Assembly (NCBI GenBank): GCA_041690355.1
Contig: JAWLHK010000002.1
Coordinates: 283,082-347,081, forward strand
Source: a bacterium
GTDB taxonomy: Bacteria; J088; JAWLBW01
DNA length: 64,000 bases
Reading direction: 5' to 3'
Part shown: positions 518 to 34,692 of the stretch, piece after piece
Position numbering within the stretch: position 1 is the stretch's first letter
Layout of the letters: each line of letters begins with the position of its first letter
Translations under genes and position numbers: made by a program
The notes under the pieces: generated by a model
Told to the model about the DNA's origin: nothing
The model's database searches: none
What the model saw: only the letters and a program-made list of their open reading frames with translations

Positions 518-565
518 GGCGGTTATTATATCCGCGCCGACCAACGGGCGCGACCCCCCACATCA

Positions 566-745
566 AGTTACGAGTTACGAGTGACGAGTGAACGAGTGAC
601 GAACACCTTACCGTTCGCCTCGAGCTTACGGACGAAGGCAGAGCCGGAGTCGACAGCGAGAGGTTGCGCAAACTGACGATTGACGATTTGGCGGAACGCG
701 CCCGCTGGCCCCCGTCCCTTGCTTCCTTGGCGCTCGGCGCTTGTC
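566..745. repeat. mosaic intergenic element, reverse orientation (TCACTCG array 566-605, AATCGTC units 675-688, AGCGCCG module 725-745)
   Basis: Tandem 7-bp units cgagtta/cgagtga, gacgatt x2 and ccttggcgctcggcgcttg; the reverse complement of 601-688 aligns with 10563-10650 with few mismatches. Confidence 0.8.
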
Positions 746-2718: not shown

Positions 2719-2830
2719 TTTACGATTGACGATTGACGATTGACAATTTTCGGAACGAACCCTGGCATGCTGCCCGTTCTTGCGGGAGCCGGTCAAATCG
2801 TCAATTGTAAATTGTAAATCGTCAATTTCC
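2719..2830. repeat. inverted pair of AATCGTC-type heptamer arrays (2719-2750 and 2794-2830) flanking a 43-bp core
   Basis: Arm 1 tttacgattgacgattgacgattgacaatttt, arm 2 caaatcgtcaattgtaaattgtaaatcgtcaatttcc; arms pair unit by unit with a few mismatches; begins 2 bp after the typA stop. Confidence 0.8.
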
Positions 2831-4473: not shown

Positions 4474-4493
4474 GGCGGGCTGCACAGCCGCGC

Positions 4494-4710
4494 ATTCCTG
4501 ATTCCTGATTCCTGATTCTTGATTCTTGACTCCTTGAGCCGGAAGGTGAAGCGCCGAGCGCCGAGCGCTAAGCACCGAGGAAGGGCAAAGGTTTCATCGT
4601 CCTTGTCTGAAATCGTCAATTGTAAATCGTCAATCGTCAATTCCCGTGACTTGACGCGCGCCCGCCGACTCTATATTTTGACTCTTGACCCCTGACTCTC
4701 GACTCGCGAC
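4494..4710. repeat. mosaic intergenic element (ATTCCTG array 4494-4537, AGCGCCG module 4548-4580, AATCGTC array 4610-4645, GACTCTT-like array 4668-4710)
   Basis: Four distinct tandem heptamer arrays in a row between the FAD gene stop and the sterol-desaturase-family start. Confidence 0.8.
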
Positions 4711-10431: not shown

Positions 10432-10494
10432 AGCGATGGATTCTACCATGGCGCGTCATTTCTGTAACGCGCTACTTGAGCGCCGGGCACCAGT

Positions 10495-10672
10495 CAAGCG
10501 CCGAGCGCCGAGCGCTGAGCGCCAAGGAAACAAGCACATGGGTATTTTCGGTACTTTCCGGTAAATCGTCAATCGTCAGTATGCGCAACCTCTCGCTGTC
10601 GACTCCGGCCCTGCCTTCGTCGGTCAGCTCGAGGCGAACGGGAATGTCACTCGTCACTCGTAACTCGTAACT
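10495..10672. repeat. mosaic intergenic element, forward orientation (AGCGCCG module 10495-10527, AATCGTC units 10563-10579, TCACTCG array 10647-10672)
   Basis: Same module order and internal unique sequence as the reverse-oriented element at 566-745. Confidence 0.8.
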
Positions 10673-10754
10673 TCGCGGAGCGCTCCCCCTTCCCCCCTTG
10701 GCAAGGGGACGCACTACAATAGGGAAGCGTGAACGCCGCCTCGAGGAGTTACCG

Positions 10755-15011: not shown

Positions 15012-15308
15012 ATGAAAGCGAAGTTCTGGATAGCTTCCGCCGCGGCTCTCGTGCTGGGTACGGCCGGTTTCGCCCAGGCAGCCGGCGGCGACAAGGAACA
15101 CGAAGGCATGGAGGGTCAGCAGACCGAAGAGATTCTGATTCCCGCCCCGGGCGAGGCCACGGCCGGCACCGAAGAAACGCGCGTCCCGATGGAGGGCGAA
15201 GAAGGGATGCAGGACCCGGGGCTGCAGCAGGACGAGGTGATTCAGGAAGACCTGGCGCCTGAAGAGGGCGCGACCGGCGCCGAAGAGTCCGACGGCATGA
15301 ACTACTGA
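15012..15308 (+). CDS. small secreted acidic protein (hypothetical)
   Basis: 98 aa; signal peptide MKAKFWIASAAALVLGTAGFAQA; ggagg RBS; followed by a terminator. Confidence 0.5.
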   Translation: MKAKFWIASAAALVLGTAGFAQAAGGDKEHEGMEGQQTEEILIPAPGEATAGTEETRVPMEGEEGMQDPGLQQDEVIQEDLAPEEGATGAEESDGMNY

Positions 15309-15328: not shown

Positions 15329-15369
15329 AAAAAAGCGGAAACCGGCCGGTCCGGTTTCCGCTTTTTTTT
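15329..15369. terminator. bidirectional intrinsic terminator
   Basis: A-run, stem gcggaaaccgg / ccggtttccgc, T8; lies between the 15012 gene and the 3' end of tRNA-Val. Confidence 0.65.
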
Positions 15370-15375
15370 CGAAGA

Positions 15376-15450
15376 TGGTGGGCGATGTAGGGATCGAACC
15401 TACGACTTCCACCGTGTGAAGGTGGCACTCTCCCGCTGAGTTAATCGCCC
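15376..15450 (-). tRNA. tRNA-Val (anticodon CAC)
   Basis: Minus-strand read GGGCGATTAACTCAGCGGGAGAGTGCCACCTTCACACGGTGGAAGTCGTAGGTTCGATCCCTACATCGCCCACCA folds as a cloverleaf: 7-bp acceptor stem, D and T arms, anticodon loop TTCACAC, encoded CCA. Confidence 0.9.
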
Positions 15451-15510
15451 GAGTGCATGCAGGAATCGAAAATTGTAGCAGCCCCTTTCGGAATGATCAA
15501 TGGGGCCGCT

Positions 15511-15649
15511 GCCAAGCGCTGAGCACCGAGCGCCCATGAGGAACGAGAAACGTGATCAAGGTTCTTGCCTGGATTCGTCACTCGTCACTCGTAACTCGTA
15601 ACTCGGCACTTGCATAAATCGTCAATCGTCAATCGTAAATTGTAAATTC
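15511..15649. repeat. mosaic intergenic element (AGCGC module 15511-15535, caaggttcttgcc 15557-15569, TCACTCG array 15573-15606, AATCGTC array 15616-15649)
   Basis: Tandem heptamers as in the other elements; the AATCGTC array overlaps the last codons of the 15622..16008 gene. Confidence 0.8.
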
Positions 15650-16008
15650 TCCGGCTCCGCCGCCGCCGCCTCGATGGTTCCGCCCGGGGCCACCAGATAG
15701 AACCCGGCATCCCCGTCACCGTACTCCCCGGACGGATCCGACAGCAGCGGCGCCTGGATGCCGAACCGGTCGCACAGCGCGCGCGCTTCGGCTGGTTCGG
15801 CCGCCACGATCAGATAGACGTTCACGAAATCTTCGAGCAGCCAGTGGGCCACGCGCGCGGCCGCGGCTTCGAGCAGGCGCTCCTGTCTCGCACGGGGAAC
15901 AATGCCGACGACCGTGTGCCCGCGGGCGAAGATTTCGGCCAGATCGATGTTCCCCCCCTTGCTCGAAGCCAGACGGCGGGCGGGAAACGGCGTGCGGACG
16001 GCAATCAT
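15622..16008 (-). CDS. hypothetical protein with degenerate thioredoxin/peroxiredoxin-like segments (no CxxC)
   Basis: 128 aa from MIAVRTP; APLLSDPSGEYGDG and FYLVAPGGTIE resemble peroxiredoxin motifs but no catalytic Cys is present; C-terminal ENLQFTIDD is encoded by the heptamer array. Confidence 0.4.
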   Translation of the reverse strand: MIAVRTPFPARRLASSKGGNIDLAEIFARGHTVVGIVPRARQERLLEAAAARVAHWLLEDFVNVYLIVAAEPAEARALCDRFGIQAPLLSDPSGEYGDGDAGFYLVAPGGTIEAAAAEPENLQFTIDD

Positions 16009-16151
16009 TGGAGGGCGCTCGGGAAAGAGGTTCGTTCCGTTCCAGTATACGGAATTCCACCCGCGGTCGCCGCCGGAGGAGCGACGGTCGTGCATACTTT
16101 CGCTGCGGCGGGCGGGCGGCCGATTTGTCCGGGCATCCCCGCCGCGCTATC

Positions 16152-27280: not shown

Positions 27281-27625
27281 ATGCGGAAGATTTTCTGCGC
27301 GCTGGGGTGGTCTTTTCTTCTGGTGGCCTGCGGCACGTTCGACGGGGAACCTCCGGGGGCTTCGGGCCCGGTGTCCCTGACAGAAGTGGACGAGACCGTC
27401 ATCATCAGCCAGTCGGACGATCGATGGAGCCGGTTCGAGCTTCCCGAAGAAGACGGGGAGTGTTCGCAGGACGCCGATTGCGAAATGGGGGGCTGTTCGG
27501 CCGAAGTCTGCACGACGGTCACGACGGCCCCGGAGCTGTTCACGACCTGTAACGAACAGCACCCCGGCAATGGTTTCCGTTGCGGCTGCATCCGGTCGCA
27601 TTGCCGCTGGCAGAAATACGAATGA
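27281..27625 (+). CDS. cysteine-rich lipoprotein (hypothetical)
   Basis: 114 aa; lipobox FLLVAC; eight further Cys in the mature part; gggaggaag RBS. Confidence 0.55.
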   Translation: MRKIFCALGWSFLLVACGTFDGEPPGASGPVSLTEVDETVIISQSDDRWSRFELPEEDGECSQDADCEMGGCSAEVCTTVTTAPELFTTCNEQHPGNGFRCGCIRSHCRWQKYE

Positions 27626-27726
27626 GCGTTCGGGCCGGGCCCGAACGCTCATTCCTGATTCCTGATTCTTGATTCCTGACCGGAACGCCCAGCGACTGCC
27701 GGCTGAAGACTGCCGCCTGAAGACTG
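27620..27726. repeat. mosaic intergenic element (palindromic hairpin 27620-27654, ATTCCTG array 27651-27681, CAGTCTT-family units 27694-27726)
   Basis: Perfect palindrome tgagcgttcgggc/gcccgaacgctca overlapping the stop codon, then attcctg x4, then a duplicated ctgccgNctgaagactg. Confidence 0.75.
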
Positions 27727-33081: not shown

Positions 33082-33332
33082 CAGTCTTCAGGCGTCAGTC
33101 TCCGGTCCTCAGTCGGAATTCGTCACTCGACACTCGATACCCGTCACTGAGTATTCGTCACTCGTCACTCGTCACTCACACAAAGCGCCAAGCGCTGAGC
33201 ACCGAGTGCTGACGAGGCAAGGGCGAAGTGTTTCAAGGTTCTTGCCGGAAACGCGTCACTCGTCACTCGTAACTGAACAAGGTTCTTGCCGCTCAATCGT
33301 CAATCGTCAATCGTAAATCGTCAATCGACGAG
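33082..33332. repeat. largest mosaic intergenic element (CAGTCTT-family 33082-33114, TCACTCG array 33117-33180, AGCGC module 33184-33217, caaggttcttgcc 33234-33246 and 33278-33290, TCACTCG 33251-33275, AATCGTC array 33293-33332)
   Basis: All module types in one spacer, beginning 4 bp after the sulfatase stop and ending next to a TATAAT box upstream of rseP. Confidence 0.8.
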
Positions 33333-33357
33333 TGGGGCGTAGTATAATGAGCGAATC

Positions 33358-34692
33358 ATGGGAATTCTGACATTCATCCTCGTGCTGGGGATTCTGATCT
33401 TCGTTCACGAGTTCGGCCACTTCTATTTCGCGAAACGCGCGGGCGTCGGCGTCGAACGTTTCTCCATCGGCTTCGGCCCCAAACTTTTCGGCTTCACGCG
33501 GGGCGAAACGGAGTACCGCGTCGCCGCCATTCCGCTCGGCGGCTACGTGAAGATGGTCGGCGACAATCCCGACGAGGCCCGGCAGGGGACCGAGAAGGAA
33601 TTTCTGAGCCGCCCCGTGCGCGACCGGCTGCCCATCGTGCTGGCGGGCCCCATCGTGAACCTGGCGCTCGCGTTCGTGCTCATGCCGCTGGTCTACCTGC
33701 TCGGCGTGCAGGTACCCGCCTTCGTTCAGGAAAAGCCGGTCATCGGGTATGTCGAGCCGGGGAGCCCGGCCGAGCGCGCCGGCCTGCAGACGGGGGACGA
33801 AATCGTCGCCATCAACGGCAAGCCGATGCCCGCCTGGGAAGACGTGCTCGCCTCGACCATGGCCGAGCCCGGCAAGACGATTCAGGTGCGGCTGACCCGC
33901 GGCGGCTCCAGCCTGCAGGTTCCCGTGCATCTCGAAACCGCCGAGAGCGGGGCCGCGGCCTTCGGCGTGCAGCCCCCGGCCGTGCCCGTCGTCGGGCAGG
34001 TCAATCCCGGATCTCCCGCCGCCCTGGCCGGCCTGCAGCCGGGCGACCGGATCACCAGCCTGAACGGGGTGCCGGTCGACCACTGGGTGGCCATGGCCGA
34101 ACGCATCCAGTCGCTGGGGACGCAGCCGATTGAAGTCGGCTTCGCGCGCGACGGGGGCGAGCAGCGCGTCATGCTCACCCCCGAGCGCATGGCCGACGCC
34201 GACCGGGTCATCATCGGCATCCAGCGCAGCGAAGACCTGGTCGAGGTGCAATACGGCTTCGTCGACGCTGTGCGCGAAGGTTCGCGCCGCGTCGTACAGA
34301 TGACGACCCAGACCTTCGACATCCTGGGCAAGCTGCTGACCGGACAGCTGGGGGTGAAGACCCTGGGCGGCCCGATCCGCATCGCGCAGGTGACGTCGGC
34401 GGCGGCCGAAAGCGGCCTCTCCGACGTGCTGTCGCTGATGGCGTTTCTCTCGTTGCAGCTCGGCATTCTGAACCTGCTGCCGTTTCCGGTGCTCGACGGC
34501 GGGCACGTGCTCTTCATGAGCATCGAGGCCATCCGCCGCCGTCCGCTGTCGCGGCGCGCGCTCGAAATTTCGACGCAGGTCGGCTTCGTGCTGCTGCTCG
34601 TGCTCATGGTCGTCGTGACCAAGAACGACATCATGCACGCCTGGGGTCCGCAGATCGAGCGCATGTTCGACACGGTCCGTAATCTGTTCTGA
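33358..34692 (+). CDS. rseP: RIP metalloprotease RseP (site-2 protease)
   Basis: 444 aa; HEFGH zinc motif in TM1, PDZ region, C-terminal TM helices. Confidence 0.9.
   Translation: MGILTFILVLGILIFVHEFGHFYFAKRAGVGVERFSIGFGPKLFGFTRGETEYRVAAIPLGGYVKMVGDNPDEARQGTEKEFLSRPVRDRLPIVLAGPIVNLALAFVLMPLVYLLGVQVPAFVQEKPVIGYVEPGSPAERAGLQTGDEIVAINGKPMPAWEDVLASTMAEPGKTIQVRLTRGGSSLQVPVHLETAESGAAAFGVQPPAVPVVGQVNPGSPAALAGLQPGDRITSLNGVPVDHWVAMAERIQSLGTQPIEVGFARDGGEQRVMLTPERMADADRVIIGIQRSEDLVEVQYGFVDAVREGSRRVVQMTTQTFDILGKLLTGQLGVKTLGGPIRIAQVTSAAAESGLSDVLSLMAFLSLQLGILNLLPFPVLDGGHVLFMSIEAIRRRPLSRRALEISTQVGFVLLLVLMVVVTKNDIMHAWGPQIERMFDTVRNLF

Follow-up and report, generated by a model that had tools for sequence, protein, structure and literature searches.

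Heptanucleotide-Repeat Mosaic Elements and the Repeat-Encoded C-Terminus of a Thioredoxin-like Gene near tRNA-Val in an Uncultured Bacterium

Dispersed heptanucleotide repeats in bacteria

An excess of heptanucleotide repeats in intergenic DNA is established in bacteria, with polymerase slippage being the favored origin (PMC4679880, PMC4692102). Three families are present in Calothrix, while TAACTGA is found in marine Beggiatoaceae, cyanobacteria, and Bacteroidetes (PMC4679880, PMC4692102); GGGAATC and GGGGA(T/C)T occur in Xanthomonas and Nostoc, respectively (PMC4692102). The heptanucleotide long SSRs of bacteria, such as the STRR of heterocystous cyanobacteria, consist of 2 to ~8 tandem copies of 7-bp units, are over-represented relative to other repeat periods, and are almost exclusively intergenic. 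A few units are reused at many loci, mixed arrays can share one region, and inverted pairs occur occasionally. All of these features are also seen in the window, i.e., the whole 64,000-nucleotide stretch of DNA that was analyzed. Published long SSRs vary in length and sequence between relatives and are without established function. In contrast to them, the window harbors the units AATCGTC, ACTCGTC, AGCGCCG, ATTCCTG, and AAATTGT in an uncultured host of 65% GC, and its arrays are joined in conserved order and with conserved spacers into dispersed copies of 100–190 bp, one of which is documented here as having apparently replaced the C-terminus of a gene.

In Geobacter metallireducens, Aklujkar et al. 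(2009, PMC2700814) list 49 elements with four GGACCGG repeats; paired sites, their class 3, carry MTYCTGA five times. These have been proposed, without a test, to be sites for a global regulator or for IHF/HU (PMC2700814). The sequences differ from those of the window, and no fixed-order mosaic of several array types is described in G. metallireducens (PMC2700814). However, both genomes have dispersed groups of four to five tandem heptanucleotides that lie between and sometimes within genes and are often paired on opposite strands. The window unit ATTCCTG, when rotated to TTCCTGA, agrees with MTYCTGA at six of the seven positions, and, judged by CoaBC, the window organism has its closest named relatives among the Desulfuromonadales. 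Intergenic heptanucleotide repeats as such are already known in cyanobacteria, Beggiatoaceae, Xanthomonas, and G. metallireducens; the mosaic organization is the least ordinary feature of the arrays described here.

Mosaics of another kind are the REP/BIME elements and the Correia elements of Neisseria, the latter being MITEs, which are short, non-autonomous, and dispersed and combine few modules in a stereotyped order. REP/BIME-type elements and Correia-like MITEs can sit at the 3′ ends of genes, supplying terminal codons or stops. In contrast, the modules in the window are tandem heptamers rather than palindromic units, and no terminal inverted repeats, transposase, or target-site duplication were recognized for them, the empty site in a syntenic relative (L002, see below) being too diverged to set the boundaries.

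The heptads of plasmid pSM19035 are WATCACW-type units. They are contiguous, 7 bp long, and bound cooperatively by omega2 (ParB), which requires at least four units (PMC9499535). The likeness to the window is on the DNA side alone and consists of at least four uninterrupted 7-bp units in direct and inverted orientation. While pSM19035 is a plasmid and its binder a ribbon-helix-helix protein, the window yielded neither a binder nor partition genes nor a regulatory link. By analogy, a protein-binding role for the window arrays is conceivable.

Arrays and mosaic elements in the window

At a single threshold, 11 period-7 arrays are counted in the window, whereas 50 dinucleotide-preserving shuffles average 0.04 and the other periods from 4 to 12 give 0–2 arrays each. 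Altogether, ~19 heptamer arrays are present, distributed over seven intergenic regions and confined to the first 34 kb; of the intergenic regions that are 100 bp or longer, 7 of 15 bear arrays in this part and 0 of 10 in 34000–64000. They are built from approximately five unit families (AATCGTC, ACTCGTC/ACTCGTA, AGCGCCG, ATTCCTG, and AAATTGT), typically with three to eight contiguous units. Of the 627 nt in arrays, just 2 nt fall in predicted coding sequence on a crude gene map from which the thioredoxin-like gene discussed below was missing; adding this gene makes ~30 nt (15622–15651) coding. With at least three tandem 7-bp units, an excess of period 7, and intergenic reuse of the units, the arrays are of the intergenic heptanucleotide long SSR (STRR-like) type. 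They extend the range of heptanucleotide-repeat-rich genomes to an uncultured high-GC lineage in which the repeats form ordered mosaics. A first-pass annotation of the sequence had remarked on a single array at the end of a gene, missing both that heptamer arrays are an intergenic feature across the window and that this array is part of a 140-bp mosaic element copied elsewhere in it.

This element (E3, 15511–15651, ~140 bp) is one copy of a family of intergenic mosaic elements of 100–190 bp, at least five copies of which are present, all in the first 34 kb (Table 1). The module order common to the copies is an AGCGCCG array, a spacer, an ACTCGTC array, and an AATCGTC (AATCGTC/AATTGTA) array, and the non-repeat spacers are conserved between copies. 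E3 and E4 are identical in 113 of 142 aligned columns (~80%, 15511–15648 vs 33186–33326), and the left coordinate given in the first-pass annotation, 15511, turns out to be where this homology starts. The pattern AAGCGCTGAGCACCGAG of the left module is found exactly in E3 and at 33190, with related forms at 4549, 10496, and 726(−). The spacer of both E3 and E4 holds CAAGGTTCTTGCC, which is exact at 15557, 33234, and 33278 and has seven matches with up to two mismatches, compared with 1.1 expected. E1 and E2, which lie 10 kb apart, share a near-identical 65-bp non-repeat core (TGCGCAACCTCTCGCTGTCGACTCCGGC...GCTCGAGGCGAACGG; 605–672(−) and 10580–10645(+)), in which a 28-nt stretch is exact (643–670(−) and 10582–10609(+)). 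The shared spacers indicate that whole elements are also copied between loci. Ordered mosaics are hard to explain by slippage alone and offer a handle on why bacteria favor 7-bp repeats.

Table 1. Coordinates of the mosaic elements, of the modules of E3, and of the features flanking E3
Feature	Position	Strand	Basis or remark
E1, copy of E2 in opposite orientation	563..745	−	Shared core, alignment
E5, shorter copy (AGCGCCG array, spacer, AATCGTC array)	4549..4645	+	Preceded by ATTCCTG array 4490–4534
E2, 65-bp core between AATCGTC and ACTCGTC arrays	10493..10675	+	Module comparison, alignment
Hairpin with flanking A-run and T-run, likely bidirectional terminator	15329..15369		Common to tRNA-Val and the + strand gene 15012..15308
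tRNA-Val (anticodon CAC)	15376..15450	−	ARAGORN; Rfam RF00005, 65.5 bits
Sigma-70-type promoter-like site of tRNA-Val (TTGATC, 17 nt, TACAAT; TG before second hexamer)	15472..15500	−	Between element and tRNA
E3 left module, degenerate AGCGCCG-type array (GCC AAGCGCT GAGCACC GAGCGCC)	15511..15534	+	Pattern and E4 homology
E3 non-repeat spacer with mini-palindrome CAAGGTTCTTGCC (15557–15569)	15535..15572	+	Aligns with E4 spacer
E3 ACTCGTC-family array, six units	15573..15614	+	Sequence, TRF; identical variants adjacent
E3 AATCGTC/AATTGTA array, five units	15617..15651	+	Reverse complement gives last 8–9 codons and TGA stop of the gene
Cys-less thioredoxin-fold (Bcp/PrxQ/ResA-like) protein, 128 aa	15622..16008	−	Codons 15622–15648 element-derived
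E4, closest paralogous copy of E3, non-coding	33186..33329	+	Alignment; just upstream of rseP-like gene

The two right-hand arrays of E3 lie 122–200 bp upstream of tRNA-Val(CAC). On the + strand, the first reads ATTCGTC ACTCGTC ACTCGTA ACTCGTA ACTCGGC ACTTGCA and is followed by TA, which constitutes a 2-nt phase break, while the second reads AATCGTC AATCGTC AATCGTA AATTGTA AATTCTC. Tandem Repeats Finder (TRF) reports them at 15575–15610 and 15615–15647, both with period 7 and with 5.1 and 4.7 copies, respectively. The ACTCGTC family recurs at 566–602(−), 10644–10674, 33120–33177, and 33254–33274, and the second array keeps its homology to the array of E4, which is non-coding, as far as 15647/15648.

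The genes that flank the elements encode RuvX, TypA/BipA, an FAD protein, a fatty-acid hydroxylase, a GH92 protein, an FHA protein, a MacB-type permease, and RseP, among which no functional theme was found. Between typA/bipA and the FAD-protein gene, AATCGTC-family arrays are inverted (2716–2751(−) and 2793–2829(+), with a 42-bp spacer) and form a long hairpin (DNA dG −24 kcal/mol, z −3.2). The TGA stop of typA (2715–2717) abuts the array (CC TGA ATT TAC GAT TGA), and the element end GAATTTAC may supply part of this stop codon. At 27620–27680, between convergent genes, a 16-bp near-perfect GC-rich hairpin (GAATGAGCGTTCGGGCC/CGGCCCGAACGCTCATTC) runs directly into an ATTCCTG array standing where a U-tract would be, and a 14-bp tandem repeat (GACTGCCGCCTGAA x2.4, 27694–27726) comes after the array. 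Right after E4, the rseP-like gene has TATAAT at 33343, 9 nt ahead of its ATG, and no Shine–Dalgarno sequence (33343–33360), which suggests that the mRNA of this gene may be leaderless or near-leaderless.

The 3′ end of the thioredoxin-like gene

The 128-aa protein encoded by 15622..16008 (the longest ORF in this frame being 15622..16095) is identical to a protein on record from NCBI (P0001), with no contig on record that encodes the exact protein, and it has eight homologs of 39–48% identity. Its Pfam matches to Redoxin and AhpC-TSA are weak: at 16.5 and 14.6 bits, they stay below the gathering thresholds of 26.6 and 26, respectively. The AlphaFold (AF2) model is a confident thioredoxin fold (pLDDT 94.7) for which Bcp1, ResA, and AhpE are the top Foldseek matches in the PDB, with TM-scores normalized to the query of 0.65–0.79. 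No Cys is invariant among the nine family members. The protein has the thioredoxin fold of the peroxiredoxin/redoxin (AhpC-TSA, Bcp) family but neither a conserved catalytic Cys nor a Pfam score above threshold; the gene is real and encodes a Cys-less redoxin-like protein. In a representative library, the Cys-less redoxin-like domain is also matched by three to four stretches in each of P0003 (3240 aa) and P0012 (664 aa).

The 3′ end of this gene on the minus strand reads ...GAG AAT TTA CAA TTT ACG ATT GAC GAT TGA. The second array of E3 takes in (E)NLQFTIDD, as had been recognized in the first-pass annotation, the description and coordinates of which agree with the sequence, the TRF output, and the ORF list; it also takes in the stop (15624..15622). 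The last 8–9 residues and the TGA fall in 15617–15651 and are repeat-encoded. The peptides NRQSSIV and TIDD, which the annotation had attributed to the repeats, do recur in spurious frames at 2722, 4612, 10565, 15618, and 33296. For annotation, this is a caution that repeats can be the source of ORF ends, and of small spurious ORFs, in genomes of this kind.

A C-terminal xALDRLxx motif is present in all eight homologs (123–131 aa in length, except for one of 102 aa that is shorter at the N-terminus), and the window protein alone has ENLQFTIDD there, at the same length. The first-pass annotation had asked whether orthologs end before the repeat or share the C-terminus without any repeat; no homolog shares it, all eight ending in the different, ALDRL-type motif, and the 3′ ends are non-repetitive at the five homolog loci having DNA (L001, L002, and L467–L469). 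In the AF2 model, the new tail is a short C-terminal helix in the position of ALDRL (pLDDT 78).

The closest genome available is the MAG L002, the CoaBC of which is 67% identical to that of the window. Its gene order is as in the window, namely coaBC, the thioredoxin-like gene on the opposite strand, and tRNA-Val(CAC). In L002, the gene ends in ...ALDRLFAK-TAG with no heptamer array, and the gap from stop to tRNA is 58 bp, compared with 171 bp in the window. A promoter-like stretch homologous to that of the window, as read by eye, begins 13 bp past the L002 stop codon. The E3/E4 homology, in turn, extends 8 codons into 15622..16008. Since the homologs share an ALDRL-type end, L002 is without the repeat, and the tail is homologous to the non-coding E4, it is well supported from sequence comparison that the repeat-encoded tail is derived rather than ancestral, about ten codons and the original stop having been replaced. 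The direction, a gain here and not a loss elsewhere, would follow from parsimony over the eight homologs; a search of metagenome contigs with the protein found no close relative.

A possible remnant of the ancestral C-terminus beyond the element, the peptide ‘ALGAQRL’ in another frame (15441..15581), was judged to be due to chance because its codons come from the AGCGCCG module, which is also present in E4, where it is non-coding. The metagenome contig L001, the homolog of which is 49% identical, has an array of its own (CATTAAC x6 then CATTTGC x2, 22–87) ~30 bp upstream of the homolog start; its units are not related to the window units.

The overlap with the gene is probably a by-product of the spread of the element, neither acting as a switch nor being needed by tRNA-Val. 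After the split from the L002 lineage, an element copy would have come between the thioredoxin-like gene and the tRNA-Val promoter, whereby ~ten codons at the end of the gene would have been lost, among them those for the conserved C-terminal ALDRL helix motif, along with the original stop. Translation would now continue for 8–9 codons into the element, and array-borne stops would have closed the truncated ORF quickly in any frame (within 21 codons). Changes in array length are probably due to slipped-strand mispairing, as identical variant units adjoin one another (ACTCGTC x2 and ACTCGTA x2; AATCGTC x2, AATCGTA, and AATTGTA); this agrees with what has been published on heptameric long SSRs (PMC4679880, PMC4692102). 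The copies probably spread by recombination or a mobilizing activity. The locus would then be a clean, datable case of repeat DNA remodeling a C-terminus, in which a conserved helix motif gave way to eight repeat-encoded residues and a repeat-supplied stop. Why approximately five unit families keep recurring, why their modules stand in conserved order, and why AATCGTC outnumbers its permutations (see below) is not explained by a purely neutral model; these features hint at sequence-specific selection or function.

Other readings of the arrays and their wider occurrence

By analogy with known systems, the arrays could serve one or more DNA-binding proteins (e.g., a global regulator or a nucleoid-associated protein) as cooperative binding sites, although this appears rather unlikely. 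E3 would then modulate the tRNA-Val promoter or the local DNA architecture, and its overlap with the gene would be incidental. The approximately five unit families in fixed order, typically with three to eight contiguous units, are consistent with such a role, as is the left end of E3, 10 bp from the −35 hexamer of tRNA-Val. Other copies end near promoter-like sites or the starts of co-oriented genes (TTGACG-17-TATTTT at 4651; TATAAT at 33343). Precedents are ParB of pSM19035 (PMC9499535) and the paired heptanucleotide sites of G. metallireducens (PMC2700814). However, no candidate binding protein was found, the genes flanking the elements (RuvX, TypA, GH92, FHA, RseP, and MacB-type permease) are without a functional theme, and the syntenic L002 has the same tRNA-Val promoter without any element.

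The occurrence of the units beyond the window also bears on protein binding. An exact (AATCGTC)~3 array is present in more than 120 unrelated metagenome contigs (L082–L201) of 32–69% GC, none of which has the other modules of the window. An inverted partner array lies 15–120 bp away in 27 of 120 contigs, mostly as (GACGATT)n-spacer-(AATCGTC)n, the arrangement also found at 2716–2829 of the window. Some of the spacers of inverted pairs hold terminator-like hairpins, e.g., in L139. Both the recurrence in unrelated contigs and the inverted partners favor binding sites. In contrast, the orientation of the arrays relative to neighboring ORFs is only weakly biased: at the 120 metagenome loci, 42 arrays face the 3′ end of a gene in the stop-containing orientation versus 24 with a co-oriented ORF downstream, based on crude ORF calls, such that a consistent orientation of (AATCGTC)n was discarded. 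The creation of promoters by the arrays was likewise rejected; TTGACG units give occasional −35-like matches with no consistent pattern.

In viral contigs (L202–L434), 20-nt arrays of AATCGTC number 41, those of ACTCGTC 23, ATTCCTG 64, AGCGCCG 6, and TAACTGA 115. Three same-composition permutations of AATCGTC, a very small control set, give 15, 0, and 5 arrays. The excess again speaks for binding sites, and the counts hint, within this tiny control, that some heptamers are preferred. The mosaic itself was not encountered elsewhere, CAAGGTTCTTGCC, (ACTCGTC)2, and (GAGCGCC)2 being present in 0 of 201 loci examined, and a literature search gave no match to the exact array sequence. Among coaBC loci of other genomes, 1.28 Mb in total, period 7 is the commonest (10 arrays compared with 0–4 for each other period), at an array density ~18-fold lower than in the window. 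The Desulfuromonadales/Geobacter MAGs L015 (9899–9983 and 11203–11243) and L078 (9920–9983) have arrays immediately up- and downstream of coaBC; their units are GCTGATA/GCTGATG and GGAGGCT as well as GGCTGTA, with an inverted pair in L078.

A small 7-bp vocabulary (AATCGTC, ACTCGTC, ATTCCTG, and others) might even be recognized by dedicated proteins or by a copying or mobilizing activity rather than being slippage debris, a proposal that is decidedly doubtful. If it held, units would be assembled into ordered mosaics that give structure to intergenic DNA, the units themselves being found again in widely differing bacteria and in phage-like contigs. Frequent units with a stop on one strand would, as a side property, close any frame within 21 nt, as they do here.

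At the RNA level, the element might act as the 3′ UTR of the gene and fold to terminate, insulate, or stabilize the transcript before the tRNA-Val promoter, which is very improbable. E3 can form a long imperfect hairpin centered on CAAGGTTCTTG on either strand (z = −2.4), the inverted AATCGTC arrays after typA (2716–2829) form a strong one (z = −3.2), and inverted array pairs are common elsewhere. However, the other copies show no excess stability (z −1.35 to +0.56), such that a stable structure is not conserved in the family; no U-tract follows the E3 hairpin, and no such element lies between gene and tRNA in L002. Rfam matches tRNA only and no family matches the element, which together with the inconsistent z-scores across copies led to the rejection of a structured RNA or riboswitch. 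No intrinsic terminator was found between the gene and tRNA-Val. The likely terminator at 15329..15369 was recognized from the sequence and a terminator-like match on the + strand. The first-pass annotation had placed the array upstream of tRNA-Val, and it does lie there; this position is most simply incidental because the element is absent from L002 despite the same order of genes, and the tRNA has a promoter-like site of its own.

A contingency locus, in which 7-bp slippage would reversibly switch the C-terminus between functional states as the first-pass annotation had envisaged, is scarcely credible: the unit length is not divisible by three, array and ORF overlap, and the loss of one unit would lengthen the tail by 10 residues, but no change abolishes or restores the protein, every variant has the repeat-encoded tail in place of the conserved motif, the two to three perfect units are short for efficient slippage, the protein is of cytoplasmic type with no evident surface role, and arrays are also found at ~18 other sites, all non-coding. 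The C-terminal tail can indeed change with the gain or loss of a unit; the importance attached to this was overstated, since only short alternative tails result. When one or two units are changed in simulation, the protein ends in ...ENLQFTIYD*, ...TIDDLCKCRVTSYE*, or ...TIYASAELRVTSDE* or is unchanged, only the last 2–18 residues of an already non-native tail being affected, and duplications downstream of the stop are without effect. Repeat number in this simulation turns the product neither on nor off, nor does it exchange functional variants, and no on/off phase-variation switch is expected because a unit change only swaps short C-terminal tails.

The tails remain short because the reverse-complement array meets a stop within 7–21 codons in every frame. 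(GACGATT)n has a TGA every 7 nt, and since 7 and 3 are coprime, successive units put the stop in successive frames; the actual three frames stop after 7, 9, and 21 codons. In a post hoc comparison of a very small sample, TGA/TCA is found in all five frequent units, giving one strand a stop in each of its three frames, and in none of the three rare ones.
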